A DNA stretch of 64,000 nucleotides from an uncultured Clostridia bacterium. GTDB taxonomy: Bacteria; Bacillota; Clostridia; Christensenellales; UBA1242. Shown one piece after another: positions 3,883-61,297 of the stretch (the first letter of the stretch is position 1; the number at the start of each line of letters is the position of its first letter). Under the pieces are notes generated by a model. That model was not told the DNA's origin and made no database searches. It saw only the letters and a list, made by a program, of their open reading frames with translations. Where the stretch lies: positions 17,144 to 81,143 of the forward strand of contig CALWPB010000002.1 of NCBI GenBank assembly GCA_944383315.1. Reading direction: 5' to 3'. Made by a program: the position numbers and the translations under genes.

Positions 3883-6800
3883 ATGACAAAAAAATGGCTT
3901 GGAAGCTTTTTAATCTTTTTGCTCATAGTAATCGTAGGCATTAGTATTGGTCTGTCTATTTATTATTTCTTGCGTAACAACGAAGTATTTAGCTTCGGCA
4001 CAGGGGATGAACAGTCAATAACACAATATGCCAATGTGGGCGAAACTTTTGACATTGCAGTAACACGTACAAATGCAAGCAGTGATGAATATTCATTGCA
4101 GAGTTTGGACGAGTCTGTCGCTAAATTTAAAGAAAAATTTAAAGACGATGAATCAGGAAATGTAGAAATTTGGAGATTTGAGGCACTTGCAGGCGGTAAT
4201 ACAACAATTCAGTTGATTACCACCAACGAAGCATACAAAAATCTCAACGTATCTATTTACGTTGGTAATGGTACTGCTGAATACCCATTCTATATACGTT
4301 CTTATCAAGATTTATCTGCAATTAGTGAAGATAACGCAAGCGGAATGACTCTTTCTGCTCATTATCAACAGGTTGCTGATATTGATATGAGTGTTGCAAA
4401 TTCTGTATGGAATCCAATTGGAACTGGTTCAACAGCAGGATTTACAGGTTCTTACAATGGTAATAACCACGTAATTTCTAATTTAGAGTTGATGCAAGAA
4501 GGTTCTGTATTCGCAGATGAAAATACTGTTTATGTAGATGGTACAGTTGAAAATGCTGGTTTGTTTGCACGCGTTGGCAATGGTGGAGTGGTGTCTAGAC
4601 TTACAATTTCAAATGCAATAATAGACGGTAATTTTGTTAGTGCTGGTGCAGTGGCTGGTGTGGTAAACGGCGGTCAAATCAACTTTGTAAATGTTGTTGA
4701 TTCAGTTATTAGCAGTAAATATACCGCAACACCTGTTATTGGTGGAATTGCTGGTAAACTTGTTGGCACAAACTACAATGCTCGTATTCAATACTCTGCT
4801 GTTGTAAACTCTACAATTAGCGCTGGTACTGCTGGCGAAATTGGTGGACTTGTTGGTGAAGCAACAGGTGCATACATCAACAACTCTTATGCAATCGTAT
4901 CATTTGCTACTGACAGTGCTAGTAATCCTATAATTGGTGGGATTGTTGGATTATTAGCAAATGGTAGTGGAAATACTGCAGCAAGCACAAGTACAAAGAG
5001 TGCAGTAGTAAACAACTATTCTGTACTTAAAGAATTAAATATAGCAAATACAAATAATTCACGTATAGGTGCTATTGTCGGCTGGAATAGCAACGGTGGC
5101 GCAAATACTCAAGCAGTTCTCAAACCTACACTTGACGAAGGTGAAGAGAATGTAGAAAACAGAATTTTAGGTAACTTCTACCAGAAAGTAACAGGTCTTA
5201 ACTATGAAATCAATGGTTTGGGTGGTTTCAGCGATGTTTCAAATGCATATCTTGCATACGGTCAAACCGCTGAAAATATGAAGAAAAAACCTACTCAAGA
5301 ACAGTTAGACAATATCGCAACTTCTGGTGTAATAGACAGTAGTCTTGCTTATGTAGGTTACGACATTCAAGGTTTGTTCGCTGGTTGGAACTTTGACCTT
5401 GTTTGGAATATTGAACCCGCACAAAATGATGGATATCCTTTCATTAGAGCAGATGCTGTGGCTATTCCTGATGCTATTTATGACGACTTTGATGTAATTT
5501 ATGTTTCAGGCGCGCAAGCATTGTTAAATGCTTTCAATGCAGACTTGCTCGATGATGGAATCTACAACGGCAAGTACCGTATCGATCACGACATCAACCT
5601 TGCAGAACTAAATTCAGAATGGACTCCAATTGGTACAGCAGAAAACCCATTCAATGGTGAATTCGTAATGGTGGCTGACGAAAGTGGTAATATGCCAAAG
5701 ATATTTAACTTAGTAATTACAACTGACAGAGATTACAATGGTTTCTTTGGTGTAACTGGTTCAAATGCGAATATTCAAAACCTTTACATTGAAGGTGTTC
5801 GCATCACCGCTGGTACTTATGTAGGTGCTATCGCTGCATTAAATGGTGGTAGTATCACTGACTGTACTGTGCGCTCAAATACTGATACCGACTTTACAGG
5901 TATTCAAGTGAACGTAAAGGACAGCAGTCAATATATCGGTGGTGTAGTTGGTTACAATAGCAATGGTGCAATATTGCAGGGTAGTAGCGCAATGTTAAAT
6001 GTTCGTATCGCTGGTACAGAGAATAATCATTCAATCAATATCGGTGGTATCGCAGGTTACAGCGCAGCGAATGCAAATATTACAGGTTGTGCTTATGATG
6101 GCGTAATGGTAAATGGTCAACCTTCTTACACAATCGAAGTAAATATTTCTGCTATTAATAGTGAAGTAGTTGCTGGTGGTGTGGTTGGTAACTTGTATTC
6201 AAGATTAAGCAACTCAAGTTTCTCTGGTAAATTGACAGCACCTTCAATCAATGGTGTAATTGTCGGCGGTGTAGTAGGTAAGTATCAAACTTCAACTACA
6301 ACTACACAAAGTGTAATTACCGCGTGCAAGGCAACAGACATTAACTTAACAGGTTACTTGGCTGGTGGTATTATCGGTAAACTTGATTCAACAAGTAATA
6401 ACGGAGTTACAAACGTAATTTCACAATGTTATTCAACTGGTAGTATTTACGGTGGCAGAATAGGTGGTCTTGCTGGTGAAATTACTCGCGGCGGTATCGT
6501 AAACTCCTACACAACTTGCTACCTTAGTGGTAGTGTAATGGGTGGATTTGCAGCAGATATTCTGTTCGCAAACACATCTGACTTTGGTAGAGTTTCTTAC
6601 TGCTTCTCAAATGCTACATTTGACAAATCAGCAGGTAGCGCTTACGCAGAAACTTCTAGTGAAGTGCGCGCACTTAATAACTGGTGGAATGCTGATACCA
6701 AAGTTGGTGGCTATGTAGAACATTGTATCTATAATGGCGACAACGCAAATGGTGCAGAACGTAGATATGGCTCATTTAGAGTTTTAGGTTGGGCTCCAGA

Positions 6801-6921
6801 ACCTGATGACGGAAAGACAAGTGATGGAGACTGCAAACGTATGGAAACTTTCACAAATCGTGGTTTTGACAGCACAATTTGGAACTTTACAAGCAATTCA
6901 TACCCAACATTAAATATATAA
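3883..6921 (+). CDS. large membrane-anchored surface protein with GLUG-motif repeats
   Basis: N-terminal TM anchor (WLGSFLIFLLIVIVGISIGLSIYYF). There are at least 10 G-G-[ILV]-[AV]-G motifs (IGGIAGKLVG, IGGLVGEATG, IGGVVGYNSNG, IGGLAGEITRG..). Two modules each end in W.F..W....YP[FT][IL]. Confidence 0.85.
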   Translation: MTKKWLGSFLIFLLIVIVGISIGLSIYYFLRNNEVFSFGTGDEQSITQYANVGETFDIAVTRTNASSDEYSLQSLDESVAKFKEKFKDDESGNVEIWRFEALAGGNTTIQLITTNEAYKNLNVSIYVGNGTAEYPFYIRSYQDLSAISEDNASGMTLSAHYQQVADIDMSVANSVWNPIGTGSTAGFTGSYNGNNHVISNLELMQEGSVFADENTVYVDGTVENAGLFARVGNGGVVSRLTISNAIIDGNFVSAGAVAGVVNGGQINFVNVVDSVISSKYTATPVIGGIAGKLVGTNYNARIQYSAVVNSTISAGTAGEIGGLVGEATGAYINNSYAIVSFATDSASNPIIGGIVGLLANGSGNTAASTSTKSAVVNNYSVLKELNIANTNNSRIGAIVGWNSNGGANTQAVLKPTLDEGEENVENRILGNFYQKVTGLNYEINGLGGFSDVSNAYLAYGQTAENMKKKPTQEQLDNIATSGVIDSSLAYVGYDIQGLFAGWNFDLVWNIEPAQNDGYPFIRADAVAIPDAIYDDFDVIYVSGAQALLNAFNADLLDDGIYNGKYRIDHDINLAELNSEWTPIGTAENPFNGEFVMVADESGNMPKIFNLVITTDRDYNGFFGVTGSNANIQNLYIEGVRITAGTYVGAIAALNGGSITDCTVRSNTDTDFTGIQVNVKDSSQYIGGVVGYNSNGAILQGSSAMLNVRIAGTENNHSINIGGIAGYSAANANITGCAYDGVMVNGQPSYTIEVNISAINSEVVAGGVVGNLYSRLSNSSFSGKLTAPSINGVIVGGVVGKYQTSTTTTQSVITACKATDINLTGYLAGGIIGKLDSTSNNGVTNVISQCYSTGSIYGGRIGGLAGEITRGGIVNSYTTCYLSGSVMGGFAADILFANTSDFGRVSYCFSNATFDKSAGSAYAETSSEVRALNNWWNADTKVGGYVEHCIYNGDNANGAERRYGSFRVLGWAPEPDDGKTSDGDCKRMETFTNRGFDSTIWNFTSNSYPTLNI

Positions 6922-19954: not shown

Positions 19955-19996
19955 AGCGTCCTCGCATACAATTTAGCATGTGGAGGGCGCTTTTTT
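19955..19996 (+). terminator. uvrC terminator
   Basis: agcgtcctc (19955-19963) pairs with gagggcgct (19983-19991) with one G-U pair, followed by T6. Confidence 0.65.
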
Positions 19997-21023
19997 GTCT
20001 TTAAATCGAAACGAACGCATCTTTTTTGCAGTGTTTACTGTTATTGTGGCTACATTCTTGTTTGTGGCTCCGTTCTTTATACTTCCACGTATTTATGCGG
20101 GTCGTGAAGGCTGGATAAATACAGCACCGCCAAATTCAGTAATACTAGAACTGTGGGAAATAGATACTTTTGAAGGTGGCAGTGCAAGCCGAGCAAAATT
20201 TTTAGAAAAAAATGCATATCTATATCAAACCGAGGTGCTAGACACTTACGTGTTAGTGCGCGCTTTGGGACTAGAACAAGCGCATACTATGCTTTCACAA
20301 GGTTCACGACCAGATATTGTTAGTTTTGGGATAGGCGCGGGTGAGTTAATACAGCCTATAAGTACAGAATTCGGTGAAATAGATGGTGTGCGTGCTGACT
20401 TGCTCTCGGGTGGTTTATATGAGGGTAATCAATACGCAGTACCGTGGTGCTTAGGTGGTTATGTATTATGTGCAAGCAGTGATTTCGGCGAAATTAGCCA
20501 AGATAATTTTTCACAAAAAGGTGAAACCTGCGGAAATAATTTAATTATAACGGGCTGTAACTACAACGTGCCAACACTAAATTTAAACGAAAATTATTCT
20601 CAATATCTTGCGAATGACAAATACACCCAATACGAAGCATATGATGCATATTTACACAATTTAGAAAATAAGGTGCTATTAGGCACACAACGTGATTTTT
20701 ATCGGCTTAATAATAAAGTTGATAATGGAGTAATTAACGCAATGAATTATGAGTACATCGACAATTACACCGATTTAATACAATATATGACAATAACTAC
20801 TGACAATGAAAAATTTATACCTTATGCTCAAAAGTTTATCGAATTTATCACATCTGCTCGTATACAGCAAAAACTTACAAGCATCAAGATGTTTACAGTA
20901 AATGGTGAGTATATATACAATGATGAATATGCCGATTTTGAAAAGGCACTGAATAATAAACTACAAGTGCTAAATGTATTTACCCCAAATGTAAAATTAA
21001 CAGAACTTCAAAATAAAAGGTGA
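19995..21023 (+). CDS. hypothetical membrane-anchored protein; start uncertain (ORF open from 19980)
   Basis: N-terminal TM segment (IFFAVFTVIVATFLFVAPFFIL) followed by a ~300-aa soluble domain. There is no ATG before the TM. The candidates are GTG 19980 or TTG 19995, the latter 7 nt after ggaggg. Confidence 0.55.
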   Translation: MSLNRNERIFFAVFTVIVATFLFVAPFFILPRIYAGREGWINTAPPNSVILELWEIDTFEGGSASRAKFLEKNAYLYQTEVLDTYVLVRALGLEQAHTMLSQGSRPDIVSFGIGAGELIQPISTEFGEIDGVRADLLSGGLYEGNQYAVPWCLGGYVLCASSDFGEISQDNFSQKGETCGNNLIITGCNYNVPTLNLNENYSQYLANDKYTQYEAYDAYLHNLENKVLLGTQRDFYRLNNKVDNGVINAMNYEYIDNYTDLIQYMTITTDNEKFIPYAQKFIEFITSARIQQKLTSIKMFTVNGEYIYNDEYADFEKALNNKLQVLNVFTPNVKLTELQNKR

Positions 21024-30775: not shown

Positions 30776-30923
30776 AATTTTAGTGCAAATTCAGGGGGCA
30801 AATAAATAAATTATATTGAGTATGTAATATTAGTCAAGTCAATAGTATAATAATTACGAAGCCAAGATAATATCTATTTGATATAATTATCTACTTTAAT
30901 ATATCAAACTCAAAGGAGAAATT

Positions 30924-31685
30924 ATGTATTTAGTTATAAGAAAGAATGCCAAAGATTTTTATTACAGCGAATGTTTCGGTATTTTAAAACAAAATATAAA
31001 AGATAAGTTTGTAAAAGAGAAATTTATAGTTTTTAATAGCGATCATACAAATTTAATACTTACAGAAAAGTATTTTTACTATCGTGATTCTCAAGAAGAT
31101 AAAAAAGATTATCCACCCTATGCTGCTAAAAAATGTATTTTAATTGATACTAATAGAAGTAATTGGGTAGAAGCAAATGATAATTTGCAGGGTTATGATT
31201 TTATAGTAAATAATGACACGATTATGAAAAAATTGCTTAATAATGAGCAACTTGACAATAACATAATAACACAAGCAAAAGAAATTAATGAAAAATACGT
31301 GTTAAGTGAATGGCACAACCTTCAAACTGAATATGATATAAATAACATTAACCAATTAACATTTCATTTTCACGATGCTGAGTTAAAGAAGATAATAAAA
31401 GATGAAAATTCTACTACATTCATTTTTGATAATTGGGGTTTCCTTGTGTACTTAAAATGCGACAAAGAGAGTTGTAGATATAATTTAAAAGTTGAAGACA
31501 TATGCTCTAGTGGCGAGATTATTAAGACGGAGAAAGGATTTAAATTTACAGCTTTTGAAGAATTTTATGGCGAAGTAATAAGTTATTACTTTATTGAATC
31601 AAACAGTATGCAGTGGAAAATTGAGTTGTTACCATTGCCAAACAAAACTTGGTCATATATAGAAAACTCAAAAGATTTAAACTAA
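30924..31685 (+). CDS. hypothetical protein, tandem paralogue A (253 aa)
   Basis: RBS aaaggag. The ORF is intact in very AT-rich DNA, and its paralogue is downstream. No motif recognised, and no TM segment or signal peptide. Confidence 0.7.
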   Translation: MYLVIRKNAKDFYYSECFGILKQNIKDKFVKEKFIVFNSDHTNLILTEKYFYYRDSQEDKKDYPPYAAKKCILIDTNRSNWVEANDNLQGYDFIVNNDTIMKKLLNNEQLDNNIITQAKEINEKYVLSEWHNLQTEYDINNINQLTFHFHDAELKKIIKDENSTTFIFDNWGFLVYLKCDKESCRYNLKVEDICSSGEIIKTEKGFKFTAFEEFYGEVISYYFIESNSMQWKIELLPLPNKTWSYIENSKDLN

Positions 31686-31858
31686 CTAAAATTTTATATA
31701 TTTACTAGGATTATCATAACAGAAATTTAGAATAGACATACATTACAAGCTTAATTATTCATTTTAAATAGTGTCTTTAATATTTTTAAAATTCAAAAAT
31801 TTACTTGATTTACATTAAAAAGAGTTCAGTTAATATTAAATTAATAAAGGAGAAAATT

Positions 31859-32617
31859 ATGTATTTAGTTATAAGAAAGAATGCCAAAGATTTTTATTAT
31901 AGCGAATGTTTCGGTATTTTAAAACAAGATATAAAAGATAAGTTTGTAAAAGAGAAATTTATAGTTTTTAATAGCGATCATACAAATTTAATACTTACAG
32001 AAAGAGATTTTTATTTTCGCGTTTCCAAAGAAAGCAAAAGCACTTTCGCTACTAGAAAATGTTTCCTTTTAGACAACGATAAGAGTAAATGGGTAGAAGC
32101 AAATGATAATTTACAGGGCTATGATTTTATAGTAAATAATAATGCAGTAATGAAGAAATTATTAGATAATGAGCAACTTGATAATAGTATAATAGCACAA
32201 GCTAAAAATATTAATGAAAAATTTGTGCTTAGCGAGTGGCACAATGTTGTTACTGATTATGATATTAGGAATTTTGAGCAAGTCGCAAGTAATTTTGATG
32301 ATGCTTATGTTGAGAAAATCATTGATGATAATGAATCAATCGTTTTTGTATTTGATACAACGTGGGATTATCTTGTATATTTAAAATGTGATAAAAGCAG
32401 TTTACAACATAATATTAAAGTTGAAGAAAAAATAATGTGGTTTTGGGGTGAGGTTGATAAAACAGATAAGGGATTTAAATTCACATCCTTTGAAGAATCT
32501 AGAGACGGAAAACATTATGGTTTTATTGAATCAAACAGTATGCAGTGGAAAATTGATTTGTTACCGTTGCCAAACAAAACTTGGTCATATATAGAAAACT
32601 CAAAAGATTTAAACTAA
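31859..32617 (+). CDS. hypothetical protein, tandem paralogue B (252 aa)
   Basis: The ATG at 31859 (MYLVIRKNAKDFYY, identical to copy A) follows RBS aaaggag. The track ORF from TTG 31805 is an upstream extension. Confidence 0.7.
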   Translation: MYLVIRKNAKDFYYSECFGILKQDIKDKFVKEKFIVFNSDHTNLILTERDFYFRVSKESKSTFATRKCFLLDNDKSKWVEANDNLQGYDFIVNNNAVMKKLLDNEQLDNSIIAQAKNINEKFVLSEWHNVVTDYDIRNFEQVASNFDDAYVEKIIDDNESIVFVFDTTWDYLVYLKCDKSSLQHNIKVEEKIMWFWGEVDKTDKGFKFTSFEESRDGKHYGFIESNSMQWKIDLLPLPNKTWSYIENSKDLN

Positions 32618-32836
32618 CTAAATTTATATAAGTTTGCCTCAGGTTTTTCCAATTACTTTGAATAAATAAACATTATAAGTATAATTATTCATTTCTATGC
32701 GATGGCATTAAAAATTAAAAAATTTTTTAATTTAATAGATTTACATCAAAAAGAGTTCAGTTAATATTAATTAATATTGGCCACTCTTTTTATTTTTACT
32801 ATGTCAAAATAGAAAACATATTCATACATTACTACT

Positions 32837-53400: not shown

Positions 53401-54032
53401 AACGCGAAATAGGCAAACTAGGACACGTCAACGTAAACGCGATTGAAGACAGCAAAGATTTAGATGCAAGGTATACAGATTTATCAACGCAACTTGACGA
53501 CCTCAAAAAAGCGGAAGAAGATATAATGACAGTTATCAACGAGTTGAGCGCTCAAATGACTGAACAGTTTGACGACAAGTTCCAGAAGATTAATGAGAAT
53601 TTTTCTCGTATATTTAGAGAATTGTTCGGTGGTGGTAAGGCTCGACTTGTATTGACTGATGACGATGTGTTGACCGCTGGTGTCGACATTATTGCAGAAC
53701 CACCAGGGAAGGCGCTCGGCAACCTGAACCTATTGAGTGGTGGTGAAAAATCATTAACAGCAATAGCAATATTGTTTGCAATTTTGAAACTTCGCCCAAT
53801 GCCATTCTGTTTACTTGACGAAATTGACGCAGCATTAGACGATGCAAATGTTGAACGTTTTGCGAAATATCTGCACCGCTTTGCTGGTGAAACTCAATTT
53901 ATCGTTATTACTCACCGTAAGCCAACTATGGAACTCGCAGACAACCTGTACGGTGTAACAATGGAACAGAAAGGTGTAAGTAAGGTTGTATCTGTTAAGT
54001 TAAGCGAAGCAATACAGACCGCAACATCGTAG
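50466..54032 (+). CDS. smc: chromosome segregation protein SMC
   Basis: Walker A GPNGCGKSN, a long coiled coil, a hinge, the signature LSGGEKSLTA and Walker B LLDEIDAALD. TTG start 7 nt after gggag. Confidence 0.97.
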   Translation: MSFKRIEVLGFKSFADKLAVEFSSGITAIVGPNGCGKSNFADAIRWVLGEQSSKNLRGSCMQDVIFKGSENRKSLSFCEVSLIFTNENHQFNVDYDEVVISRKLYRSGTSEYSLNHSPCLLKDIKNILHDSGIGGDGYSIIGQGKVEQIVASKPEDRRVIFEEAAGIAKFKERKIEAERKLTRTRENLTLLENTVIEIERQLNPMKEQAEKAKKYLDLRDQLKYQEVNNYIYHYENANSNKQRINDLLDGLREQSADKEKQVQATIDKQNQSLEGIKAIDEQIQSLRDEILKLTVNLEKTAGDRRVAQAKLEYLQEQSVKIQNEIEQDKIEFVRINDELQAKQTEKSENNERLNAMRAKLDELEQIYAGVAEQLRVSEQAVSGSQQEMQDAISKLSDIKANISRLETEIQAIAERENELNQRLASVESKRDGAKVIEHQAQDDCEVAEANRRNAWDNLTALRENVSNVEQGEADLRASLDISSAELAKLESRAKLLNEMQAEYEGYNGTVRRLLLDASKNIELQKLLIGVVGELITVPTQLETAIEMALGFAVQSIVTRDEQDAKRLVNYLKSRNYGRATFLPITSMKPKYINEQYRSLLNTAGCYGVANELIQYDMNLEPVFKNLLGNTVIVDTMDTAVSLANRSHFGFKIVTLDGDVINPAGSITGGSKKAEINNLLSREREIETIAEKIKSQRSKVDEQKNTLAVYGEMLTKLAKEIDAQANMLHDYDVELAQKEEVLKHAQEDSELYSGELDEINQELSRLTTRREILEQELNTTKAMDAGEIPQAKGGSGNNQYDILREKRDNLTNQITDLKVQIATLTTEIGSIDNEIERLLTEQEELSANIDENNSLLVKNSRTIETAKELDAGAQNGDDADTVSKLDAVKTKVAEMEELKQDLHASLATIEEERTRVTNEYAKIQERIYQEEARLAQIDTNIENMQDRILEDYELTYLTALDIKDENFDAEGAQTRINELKREIGKLGHVNVNAIEDSKDLDARYTDLSTQLDDLKKAEEDIMTVINELSAQMTEQFDDKFQKINENFSRIFRELFGGGKARLVLTDDDVLTAGVDIIAEPPGKALGNLNLLSGGEKSLTAIAILFAILKLRPMPFCLLDEIDAALDDANVERFAKYLHRFAGETQFIVITHRKPTMELADNLYGVTMEQKGVSKVVSVKLSEAIQTATS

Positions 54033-54387
54033 GTTGTCAAGAGTTCCATTGCCAGCCGTACAGTAAATGTAGTAGTAGAAAGACAAAGTAACAAACGGCT
54101 GTCAATTTTTCGCAGACAACCTGTACGGTGTAACAATGGAACAGAAAGGTGTAAGTAAGGTTGTATTTGTTAAGTTAAGCGAAGCAATACAGACCGCAAC
54201 ATCGTAGGTTGTCAAGAGTTCCATTGCCAGCCGTACAGTAAATGTAGTAGTAGAAAGACAAAGTAACAAACGGCTGTCAATTTTTCGCAGACAACCTGTA
54301 CGGTGTAACAATGGAACAGAAGGGTGTAAGTAAAGTTGTGTCGGTTAAGTTGAGTGAAGCAATACAGACTGCAACATCGTAGGTTGT
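53935..54387 (+). repeat. 175-bp tandem repeat, 2.6 copies (98-nt smc 3' tail + 77 nt)
   Basis: Copy 1 is 53935-54109. Copy 2 is 54110-54284 (1 mismatch). Partial copy 3 is 54285-54387 (7 mismatches, all at smc-frame third positions). Confidence 0.95.
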
Positions 54388-54459
54388 ATTTTAAAAATTT
54401 TGAATTTTGAATTAGGAATTTAGTATTAAGGGGAAATAATATTTCTAGGTAGGCAAACT

Positions 54460-60331: not shown

Positions 60332-60406
60332 GGTGCCATAGCCAAGTGGTAAGGCCAAGGTCTGCAAAACCTTTATTCACCAGTTCGAATCTGGTTGGCA
60401 CCTCCA
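60332..60406 (+). tRNA. tRNA-Cys (GCA), CCA encoded
   Basis: Acceptor stem ggtgcca/tggcacc, anticodon arm aaggt-CTGCAAA-acctt and T arm accag-ttcgaat-ctggt. Confidence 0.93.
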
Positions 60407-60409
60407 TTT

Positions 60410-60496
60410 GCCGAAGTGGCGGAATTGGCAGACGCAAGGGACTTAAAATCCCTCGAGAGCAATCTCGTACCGGTTCGAGTCCGGTCTTCGGCACCA
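60410..60496 (+). tRNA. tRNA-Leu (UAA), long variable arm, CCA encoded
   Basis: Acceptor stem gccgaag/cttcggc, anticodon arm aggga-CTTAAAA-tccct, variable arm cgagagcaatctcg and T arm ccggt-tcgagtc-cgg. Confidence 0.93.
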
Positions 60497-60637
60497 ATCA
60501 CAGTTTCGGCTGTTTTTTTGTTTTTTAGGGATTTTAAGCCCCTGCGGGACTTAACTCTGTTGAGCCAGACCGCAGCGAAGCTGCTCCCAGCTTTGGCTAA
60601 AAACAGCACGCCTGTGCTATTTTCTTAACGCGTCGCC

Positions 60638-60690
60638 CCCTCGAGAGCAATCTCGTACCGGTTCGAGTCCGGTCTTCGGCACCAATCACA
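60638..60690 (+). repeat. perfect 53-nt duplicate of the 3' part of tRNA-Leu(UAA) plus 7 nt of trailer
   Basis: Identical to 60450-60502, running from the 3' strand of the anticodon stem through CCA and aatcaca. It lacks any 5' half, so it is not a functional tRNA. Confidence 0.95.
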
Positions 60691-60716
60691 CCTTTAAAGT
60701 TTAAAGGTGTTTTTTT
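60689..60716 (+). terminator. strong terminator after the partial tRNA-Leu copy
   Basis: cacctttaa-agt-ttaaaggtg followed by T7. Confidence 0.9.
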
Positions 60717-60800
60717 AAACCATTTATTATAAAAATATAACTTAATAGGTTTTAAAACTAAAAATTTTTGAAATTTTTTTGATTTTTTTATAAAAAACGC

Positions 60801-60861: not shown

Positions 60862-60937
60862 GGGAGCTTAGCTCAGTTGGTAGAGCATCTGCCTTACAAG
60901 CAGAGGGTCACAGGTTCGAGTCCTGTAGCTCCCACCA
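60862..60937 (+). tRNA. tRNA-Val (UAC), CCA encoded
   Basis: Acceptor stem gggagct/agctccc, anticodon arm tctgc-CTTACAA-gcaga and T loop ggttcgagtcc. Confidence 0.93.
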
Positions 60938-60944
60938 TTATTAT

Positions 60945-61020
60945 GCGGGAGTAGCTCAGTTGGTAGAGCGTTACCTTGCCAAGGTAAATGTCGCGGGTTC
61001 GAGTCCCGTCTCCCGCTCCA
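60945..61020 (+). tRNA. tRNA-Gly (GCC), CCA encoded
   Basis: Acceptor stem gcgggag/ctcccgc, anticodon arm ttacc-TTGCCAA-ggtaa and T loop ggttcgagtcc. Confidence 0.93.
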
Positions 61021-61037
61021 CTAAAAATATAAAATGT

Positions 61038-61066
61038 GAGTCCTTGTCGGGACTCTTTTGTTTTTG
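61038..61066 (+). terminator. terminator after tRNA-Gly
   Basis: gagtcc-ttgtcg-ggactc followed by ttttgttttt. Confidence 0.85.
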
Positions 61067-61297
61067 CTGTGTAGAGCAAAAACAAGCACTTTTTATAAGT
61101 GCAACCCGCGACAGTTTGAACCTGCGGTTCAATCAACTACGCAAAGTTGAGTTAATAAATTACTCAACAACTTGCTTATTGGCGCAAGTTCTTGTTCGTC
61201 CCCGCTTTGTTTTTGCTTTTAAAAACTTTTGTTCTAAAACAATTTACAAATATCTATACTTTGTGTTAAAATTTATACATATTGTTTGGGGAGGCAT

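Follow-up and report, generated by a model that had tools for sequence, protein, structure and literature searches.

Partial duplications of tRNA genes are routinely taken as the footprints of integrases. Does the 3' flank of tRNA-Leu(UAA) in an uncultured gut Clostridia bacterium, where the 3' part of the gene is repeated shortly downstream, carry such a footprint, as the initial annotation of this locus proposed (the remnant of an island or a minimal insert), or is it a structure of another kind? The window analyzed here is a 64-kb stretch of this genome, with the tRNA-Leu(UAA) 3' flank as the site under study. The neighborhood is of a housekeeping nature: plsX, smc, ftsY, an HTH regulator, GDPD, lepA and hemW are followed by the tRNA genes and then by ruvCAB. 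The remaining window is likewise housekeeping, with TyrRS, RecX, SpoIIE, TilS, UvrC, MurB, WhiA, DnaE and Pfk as well as GlmS, Lon, RecD2, ComF, SecA, RF, TsaD and DHFR. The relatives used for comparison are MAGs of uncultured gut Clostridia, a few of which are labelled Christensenella; HemW is 54-74% identical in the closest reference species.

The site consists of a 188-nt unit (one 53-nt tRNA-Leu 3' part and a 135-nt cargo) that is positioned between the tRNA-Leu(UAA) gene and the native terminator of this gene (Table 1). The perfect 53-nt duplicate at a spacing of 188, the weak hairpin after its first copy and the strong one after its second, the GC-rich 135 nt in between with two hairpins, and the 9-mer gggacttaa had all been reported in the initial annotation, and all are present. 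The strong hairpin has 10 pairs followed by T7. A perfect repeat of 53 nt cannot be due to chance. The G+C content of the cargo amounts to 0.49-0.55, while that of the spacers nearby is 0.13-0.25. In 5' to 3' order, the cargo comprises the terminator t1, a T-rich spacer, an inverted copy of the anticodon arm, the 9-mer and an 83-nt core with two to three hairpins. In the related species L003 and L009, t1 is a 6-pair AACAGCTTCGGCTGTT hairpin that is scored as a terminator. The inverted anticodon arm had escaped the initial annotation, as had the degraded tRNA-Gly module and the tandem smc units described below. The loop of its core is complementary to the tRNA-Leu anticodon loop at 7/7 positions, and a Smith-Waterman comparison of the cargo with the reverse-complemented tRNA-Leu yields z = 4.06, with 1 out of 1000 shuffles scoring as well. 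The direct 9-mer is not significant when taken alone. For the 83-nt core, no match as a source was found in the neighboring tRNAs, the spacers, the Gly cargo or the smc cargo, in either orientation.

Several known structures were considered for the cargo and the second copy and rejected. The similarity of the cargo to a decayed direct tRNA 5' half, or to an older copy of the 3' part, is not significant. Copy 2 does not qualify as a functional tRNA gene, as neither ARAGORN nor Rfam reports a tRNA at 60503-60690 and direct similarity to the tRNA 5' part is not significant. A group I intron has a group I core, is no shorter than about 200 nt and interrupts the anticodon loop of a tRNA that is complete apart from it; here, merely 83 nt lie between gggacttaa and ccct, no 5' half is located upstream and no Rfam intron family matches at E <= 1. 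Similarly, Rfam 15 (including T-box, YrlA and tmRNA) gives no match over 60497-60720 at E <= 1.

Table 1. Features of the tRNA-Leu(UAA) 3' flank and of the sister modules within the window (positions in the window).
Feature	Position	Strand	Description
smc 3'-end module	53935-54387	+	2.5 tandem units of 175 nt
tRNA-Cys(GCA)	60332-60406	+	First gene of the Cys-Leu operon; ARAGORN; Rfam tRNA 66 bits
tRNA-Leu(UAA)	60410-60496	+	Intact, CCA encoded; ARAGORN; Rfam tRNA 58 bits
Repeat copy 1	60450-60502	+	Anticodon-stem 3' strand through CCA plus a few trailer bases; CCCTCGAGAGCAATCTCGTACCGGTTCGAGTCCGGTCTTCGGCACCAATCACA
t1	60500-60519	+	Weak cargo terminator (acag/ctgt plus T-run); not in the empty site of L099
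Inverted tRNA-Leu anticodon-arm copy	60518-60546	+	Core 60527-60543 agggattttaagcccct
Direct 9-mer gggacttaa	60546-60554	+	Equals the anticodon stem 5' strand and the loop up to the anticodon
Cargo core (83 nt)	60555-60637	+	Hairpins; no local source detected
Core hairpin gcagc-gaa-gctgc	60572-60584		
Core hairpin agcac-gcct-gtgct	60605-60618		Within 60599-60626 (A-run, T-rich tail); terminator-like match at 60605-60618
Repeat copy 2	60638-60690	+	tRNA-Leu 3' part; 100% identical to copy 1; spacing 188
t2	60688-60717	+	Native strong terminator of the tRNA operon; 10-pair stem (hairpin 60688-60710) plus T7
tRNA-Val	60862-60937		ARAGORN and Rfam
tRNA-Gly(GCC)	60945-61020		ARAGORN and Rfam
Degraded module 3' of tRNA-Gly(GCC)	about 61057-61217	+	Hairpins; delimited by the 12-nt repeat tttgtttttgct
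Inverted tRNA-Gly T-stem to D-loop copy	61103-61138	+	Inverted similarity z = 4.5
Decayed second tRNA-Gly 3' end	about 61186-61205	+	

The structure is genuine and fixed within the species. L071 and L072, which were assembled independently from other samples, span the whole tRNA-Leu structure collinearly at 99.9-100% identity, and a third contig (L001) ends exactly inside the 53-nt repeat; short-read assemblers tend to break contigs at repeats. A close relative, L099 (GCA_964315415.1), provides the corresponding empty site. Its HemW is 98%, its four-fold degenerate sites are 97% and its locus flanks are about 97-99% identical to the window. In this genome, the strong hairpin t2 follows directly 3' of tRNA-Leu, and at this site the window has exactly one repeat and the cargo (188 nt) in addition. 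The unit thus constitutes a presence/absence polymorphism with precise boundaries. As t2 adjoins tRNA-Leu directly in L099, it is t2 that is native, and t1 is derived from the cargo. L099 is also devoid of a 149-nt segment after tRNA-Gly, delimited in the window by the 12-nt repeat, and its smc locus is shorter by one 175-nt unit. Each of the three differences belongs to the type that arises when direct repeats recombine. The SNP density near the 188-nt indel is not raised between both genomes.

Among the other relatives, L003 and L009/L107 possess an orthologous cargo and a second tRNA-Leu 3' part at the same site. The tRNA-Leu module is absent from L005/L101 and L108, and in L008 a decayed second tRNA-Leu copy is recognizable only as a marginal trace. 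Three further contigs that were reached via RuvC (L105, L106 and L109) have a differing context or too little upstream sequence. A covariance model of the cargo, applied to 1.02 Mb of related sequence, retrieved four orthologous copies, exclusively at the tRNA-Leu site, and no dispersed copies. A MITE or another insertion-sequence derivative was discarded on the basis of the single site, the size of the duplication (47-53 nt) and a cargo without terminal inverted repeats.

The cargo is conserved well above neutral expectation. In the pairwise comparisons of the window, L003 and L009, the four-fold degenerate sites of HemW are saturated (28-36% identity), while the 135-nt cargo retains 87-91% identity in every pair, compared to 77-91% for the operon promoter region, 60-70% for the native terminator and 54-62% for the shuffled baseline; this conservation, like the covariation below, rests on three independent cargo sequences, one per lineage. 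An identity of 87-91% in spite of saturated four-fold sites means that the cargo is not a neutral, decaying remnant. Either purifying selection or a fairly recent exchange accounts for this; since the distances between pairs of cargos form a star and disagree with the species tree, they do not tell the two causes apart. Across the three species, 96% of the cells in the cargo helices are paired (RNAalifold and pair counting), against about 40% in slid controls. Four cargo helices display 4 double-sided (compensatory) changes, a number that is reached in 11 out of 500 shuffles. This is suggestive of a conserved cargo structure, though not conclusive. As for the repeats, copy 2 carries in each species the variable-arm and T-stem variants of its own lineage's tRNA-Leu, and the same lineage-specific allele is present in the sister genomes with an empty site. 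Because copy 2 tracks the resident tRNA allele, the two repeat copies evolve in concert. The acceptor strand of copy 2 in L003 has accumulated three uncompensated changes (tcttagacacca), from which it follows that copy 2 itself is not strictly constrained.

The layout recurs at other gene ends. A gene 3' part, an inverted copy, hairpins with a T-run and the repeated gene 3' part succeed each other at four sites in one clade (tRNA-Leu, tRNA-Gly, smc and yebC), often in tandem. At each of the four, what is inverted is the stretch at the left boundary of the duplicated gene 3' part or immediately preceding it. The module 3' of tRNA-Gly(GCC), degraded in the window, is intact in L003 and forms a tandem array of 2.3 units in L108. 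For both tRNA loci, the similarity of the inverted copy to the neighboring tRNA body is significant (z = 4.1 for Leu and z = 4.5 for Gly). At smc, each 175-nt unit comprises a 98-nt repeat block up to the smc stop and a 77-nt cargo. In the window, the third copy of the smc coding end has 7 differences from the functional end, all synonymous, and the middle copy has one non-synonymous change. The smc module is present in the window, L099, L003, L004, L008, L010 and L011. The yebC module occurs in L099 and L003, and the displaced yebC end of L099 encodes a different C-terminus. The initial annotation had already compared the tRNA-Leu layout with that of smc. This resemblance is real and extends to tRNA-Gly and yebC, but the smc locus consists of 2.5 tandem units and not of a single duplication. 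The link that it drew between the Leu and smc cargos from a shared cggctgt followed by a T-run does not hold, as 26% of the shuffles share at least one 7-mer and the Smith-Waterman comparison gives z = 1.8. Indeed, the cargos of different loci are mutually unrelated in sequence. Each locus-specific cargo is nonetheless kept between lineages (e.g., z = 12 for yebC). In the smc and yebC modules, the inverted bit changes together with synonymous codon variants of the local gene; covariation is seen in the cargo stems, too. L005 (at smc) and L101 (at tRNA-Gly) have the inverted bit but no duplication, and this bit is therefore a property of the 3' flank and not a mere by-product of an insertion. 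The end of the HTH-regulator gene in L101 resembled a fifth target, but its duplication flanks a run of Ns and is an artefact of a scaffold gap.

How did such modules arise and what maintains them? We tentatively favor the reading that the 188-bp unit is a dispensable, lineage-restricted 3'-flank module with a constrained cargo, run by homologous recombination and originating from a duplication-inversion event. Ordinary homologous recombination, with no dedicated integrase, would drive the module: gene conversion would hold the two tRNA parts identical, crossing-over between these parts would remove the unit exactly (cf. L099), and unequal exchange would alter the number of units at the sister loci. 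The architecture may have been created by a duplication-inversion template switch at a hairpin-forming gene end. The cargo may be retained for a cis action on the operon transcript, to which it would supply an extra terminator and a structured trailer for read-through RNA. The finding that all three differences between the window and L099 are of the direct-repeat recombination kind counts in favor of this reading. Its weak points include the high conservation of the cargo, which could mean recent horizontal exchange instead of selection. In addition, t1 is a good terminator in L003 and L009, such that most transcripts may exclude the cargo, which weakens the case for a function at the RNA level.

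A natural precedent for the proposed origin is found in tandem inversion duplication (TID) and quasi-palindrome template switching, which are reportedly the work of the Roth and Lovett laboratories. Both the TIDs and the modules consist of a direct copy, a short inverted copy of adjacent sequence and again a direct copy. The junctions here are located at natural hairpins (anticodon arm, T arm and terminators), and subsequent remodelling takes place by deletion and by amplification via unequal exchange. In contrast, a TID usually extends over kilobases, is unstable and owes its selection to gene dosage, whereas the present units measure 120-190 nt and are conserved across species. Two features of the modules, both of which also count against the favored reading, depart from the TID scheme: no local source could be detected for the 83-nt core, and the renewed direct copy that a TID predicts after the inverted bit is not significant at tRNA-Gly and amounts to just a 9-mer at tRNA-Leu.

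The main alternative, possible but doubtful in our assessment, holds that the unit is a minimal integrase-derived element, i.e., a CIME-like att scar or a non-autonomous mini-element mobilized in trans. A tyrosine-recombinase island would have entered tRNA-Leu with a replacement 3' part and terminator and would have shrunk to 135 nt; the remnant would be its att arms, still excisable or integrable in trans by an integrase encoded elsewhere. The observed conservation and patchy distribution would follow from such trans-mobilized arms. A CIME (cis-mobilizable element) is what remains of an ICE or IME after loss of the integrase, with att sites on both sides. As in a CIME, direct repeats of the 3' part of the target gene, here 53 nt long, perfect and starting at the anticodon arm, flank a gene-less insert. 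The element side provides the new 3' end of the gene and a terminator, with t1 preceding the native t2, and the empty sites are precise. The spread is patchy: in each of three pairs of lineages, one genome is occupied and the other is empty. The displaced smc and yebC ends differ from the functional ones (synonymous and coding changes, respectively), as replacement ends would. This is the classical signature of an incoming element and as such counts against the favored reading. Integration at a gene 3' end with a replacement end is known for e14 and phage 21 in icd; the synonymous-only changes of the displaced smc copy and the different C-terminus of the displaced yebC copy are reminiscent thereof, but hairpins of 77-135 nt separate the copies here and no phage or island is present. 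Extra anticodon-arm-like sites in the cargo could serve as recombinase-binding sites. Finally, the tandem arrays resemble the accretion at attR, i.e., at the downstream repeat, that was described for CIME-IME tandems (PMC5704250).

Nonetheless, the enzyme and the parental element that this alternative calls for were not encountered. No integrase, recombinase, transposase or reverse transcriptase is encoded in the 64-kb window. The tRNA-Leu site was checked for a larger occupant in the window, L099, L003, L005/L101, L008, L009/L107 and L108, and no integrase-bearing island was found in these about 8 lineages. Similarly, none of the four site types harbors an integrase or larger element in about 8-14 genomes; both counts refer to MAG contigs, which often break at repeats or mobile elements, so that large occupants of the sites could be missed. 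Scans of the IMG/VR viral contigs detected neither the cargo nor the tRNA-Leu 3' part, and a BLAST search of phage and plasmid records returned no match to the cargo. The JGI metagenomes proved to be without the element as well: a first scan had no match, and a gapped pattern gave 26 matches, all of which are chance matches inside coding sequence.

The position and the content of the repeat speak against an integrase too. Williams is said to have reported in 2002 that the crossover segment at anticodon-arm sites is the 7-nt anticodon loop. In all three species, the identity block opens past the anticodon loop (at ccct in the window, where copy 2 is preceded by gcgtcgcc and not by cttaaaat). 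Since identity begins after the loop, the loop overlap expected for a crossover in the anticodon loop is missing upstream of copy 2. Furthermore, copy 1 is the native allele of the lineage and not a foreign one, and a 188-bp circle is very small for site-specific synapsis. For this 135-nt remnant to occur in three species, the mini-element would itself have to be mobile, and the unrelated cargos at the four loci would call for four different systems. The comparison with CIMEs meets similar difficulties. Known CIMEs are kilobases long and are located near, or derived from, integrase-bearing elements, whereas the present insert measures 135 nt and no parent was found. A gene-less remnant should decay neutrally, whereas this cargo is conserved across species like functional sequence (0.87-0.91 versus 0.28-0.36 at four-fold sites). 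It also holds an inverted copy of its target, and the upstream copy is the lineage's own allele.

The proposal of an island remnant or minimal insert thus survives in part: a discrete unit that is bounded by repeats does exist and has a precise empty site in L099, but no integrase, island, phage or plasmid match accompanies it and its cargo is not decaying. Of the two states at tRNA-Leu for which the relatives were to be checked, an island or an empty site, empty sites are present (L099, L005/L101 and L108), while an island was found in none of the about 8 lineages. Conservation of the module in all relatives with no island was in turn considered incompatible with that proposal. The actual distribution goes half of this way, as the module is kept in some relatives and absent in others, with no island.

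We regard it as unlikely that the cargo and the tRNA half constitute a stand-alone small RNA with a regulatory or tRNA-interacting role. Such an RNA could bind the anticodon loop of tRNA-Leu(UAA) via UUUUAAG, or act as a tRNA-like decoy that displays a variable arm, a T arm and CCA. A cargo conserved at least as well as the operon promoter region, hairpins with compensatory changes and 7/7 complementarity to the anticodon loop would all fit this role, as would the T arm, variable arm and CCA that are intact in the window and L009, and the strong terminator after copy 2. However, no promoter is predicted inside the cargo, which would consequently be transcribed solely by read-through of t1, a terminator upstream of it. 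The consensus fold predicts that stems bury the anti-anticodon segment, which is thus not exposed in a loop. No Rfam family matches, including T-box and YrlA. The acceptor strand of copy 2 is mutated without compensation in L003, the second copy appears decayed in L008, and the module is dispensable in near-identical genomes. Two more specific forms of an RNA role were rejected: a minus-strand antisense small RNA, for which the promoter-like sites are weak and absent in L003, and a tRNA-like closure by pairing of the copy 2 acceptor 3' strand with the cargo, for which no covariation is seen. The cargo does share some properties with T-box leader RNAs, namely a segment with the Leu codon UUA that is complementary to the anticodon loop of tRNA-Leu(UAA), and competing hairpins beside a terminator-like stem. 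Unlike T-box leaders, it has no Rfam T-box match, no downstream regulated gene and no UGGN bulge matching the ACCA end, and its complementary segment is predicted to be paired.

It is quite improbable that the modules form an undescribed class of gene-3'-end elements in which a target-complementary guide is joined to the target 3' part, be it as non-autonomous mobile units that are inserted in trans with target duplications of 40-100 nt, or as selected antisense RNA modules (with anticodon-arm pairing in the case of tRNA-Leu). A so far undescribed guide-bearing mobile module, with the cargo as an antisense guide to the boundary of the duplicated segment and with a trans-acting enzyme (a reverse transcriptase, HUH nuclease or RNA-guided recombinase) that inserts the cargo and duplicates the target, is in our opinion very unlikely. 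It would explain why, at four targets, the cargo holds an inverted copy of sequence from the left edge of the duplicated block or from immediately upstream of this edge, and why at smc and yebC this copy varies in step with the local target, and it agrees with a duplicated block that is the local allele and with the patchy distribution. Yet, the cargos have no common sequence or structure, each site holds one copy and none is dispersed, and the window encodes no candidate enzyme. The inverted bit without duplication at smc (L005) and tRNA-Gly (L101) is at odds with such insertion, and covariation of short inverted repeats can also be produced by quasi-palindrome template switching. Finally, an artefact of assembly or scaffolding, by which a repeat-like tRNA segment would have been duplicated (the gap-flanking duplication in L101 illustrates that false duplications can occur in MAG assemblies), is effectively refuted by the identical structure in three independent assemblies from different samples, by the orthologous modules in other species from other studies and other assemblers, and by a 135-nt cargo that is unique sequence and no duplicated allele.

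What resembles the footprint of an integrase can instead be a conserved and dispensable module with its own terminator, an antisense copy of its target and a structured cargo, and the same logic applies within one clade to two tRNA genes and to the ends of two protein genes. Events of this kind break short-read MAG assemblies at these points, which makes them relevant to annotation and island-detection pipelines. If the cargo is functional, it would represent a new kind of 3'-flank RNA element linked to tRNA-Leu(UAA). A mobile unit, in turn, would be either the smallest of all known site-specific integrative units or the product of a new insertion mechanism. Even the conservative reading documents the concerted evolution of a 50-nt repeat and the recurrent, precise gain and loss of such units at the ends of housekeeping genes.

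Downstream of tRNA-Gly, the window holds a degraded module of the kind in which a gene 3' part is followed by a reverse-complement copy of neighbouring gene sequence (the inverted bit), hairpins and the gene 3' part again. Its boundaries are formed by the 12-nt repeat tttgtttttgct. Within it, positions 61103-61138 repeat in inverted orientation the part of tRNA-Gly that extends from the T-stem to the D-loop, and the tRNA 3' end recurs as a decayed second copy. The near-identical contig L099 (GCA_964315415.1) lacks the 149 nt that separate these repeats in the window. A tandem array at tRNA-Gly is present in L108, a contig from a related uncultured Clostridia MAG whose tRNA-Leu site is empty; every unit of the array combines the 3' end of the tRNA with a terminator, hairpins and the inverted bit aacccgcgacag.

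The 3' ends of the protein-coding genes smc and yebC are repeated as well. The 175-nt smc units of the window share 99% identity, and the third copy of the coding end differs at seven sites, all seven being synonymous. The start of the repeated smc block is complementary to the sequence immediately 3' of the stop codon, and a comparison across species reveals that both sides of this pairing covary. In L099, the smc array is one unit shorter and its final copy is of the A type. At yebC, the cargo (the stretch between the repeats) opens with the initial ~19 nt of the repeated block in inverted orientation, and its hairpin combines a conserved loop with stems that covary between lineages. The last, displaced yebC copy codes for a different C-terminus.

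Features in the window and in contigs of related MAGs, with their coordinates
Feature	Location	Details
yebC 3'-end tandem duplication	L099 16183-16452; L003 15091-15505	L099 units 122 nt
smc 3'-end tandem array	window 53935-54459	two 175-nt units and a third coding-end copy
Degraded module 3' of tRNA-Gly	window 61057-61217	hairpins, inverted copy, decayed second tRNA 3' end
tRNA-Gly tandem array	L108 8498-8919	2.3 units of 182 nt, identity 98-100%
Inverted Cys-Leu tRNA block	L009 11383-11731; L107 7962-8310; L108 7948-8114	orientation vs hemW, Val-Gly block
Two neighbouring paralogous ORFs	window 30919-32770	253 and 270 aa, about 930 nt apart
Large ORFs	window 3883-6921; 19980-21023	1012 aa; 347 aa
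98-nt direct repeat	L008 9914-10381	85% identity, copies 373 nt apart

The paralogous ORFs of the window, flanked by the germination protease gene on one side and a racemase-like gene on the other, have a DNA identity of 72-92%, and neither has a Pfam match. Likewise, no Pfam family was found at E<=0.001 for the two large ORFs. Between the two copies of the direct repeat in L008 lie a poly-G run and a short stretch that resembles an ORF.

In the group of L009, L107 and L108, the Cys-Leu tRNA block, including any module it carries, has the opposite orientation with respect to hemW and the Val-Gly block, which implies that the entire small Cys-Leu operon underwent inversion.

An apparent duplication, 55 nt long and perfect, of the end of the HTH-regulator gene (L101 4145-4354) was rejected as a module: its copies flank a run of 100 Ns and represent a scaffolding artefact. 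Short-read contigs of this clade begin or end exactly within 3'-end repeat modules, as seen for the ends of L001, L003 and L008, so that the modules systematically fragment MAGs here.
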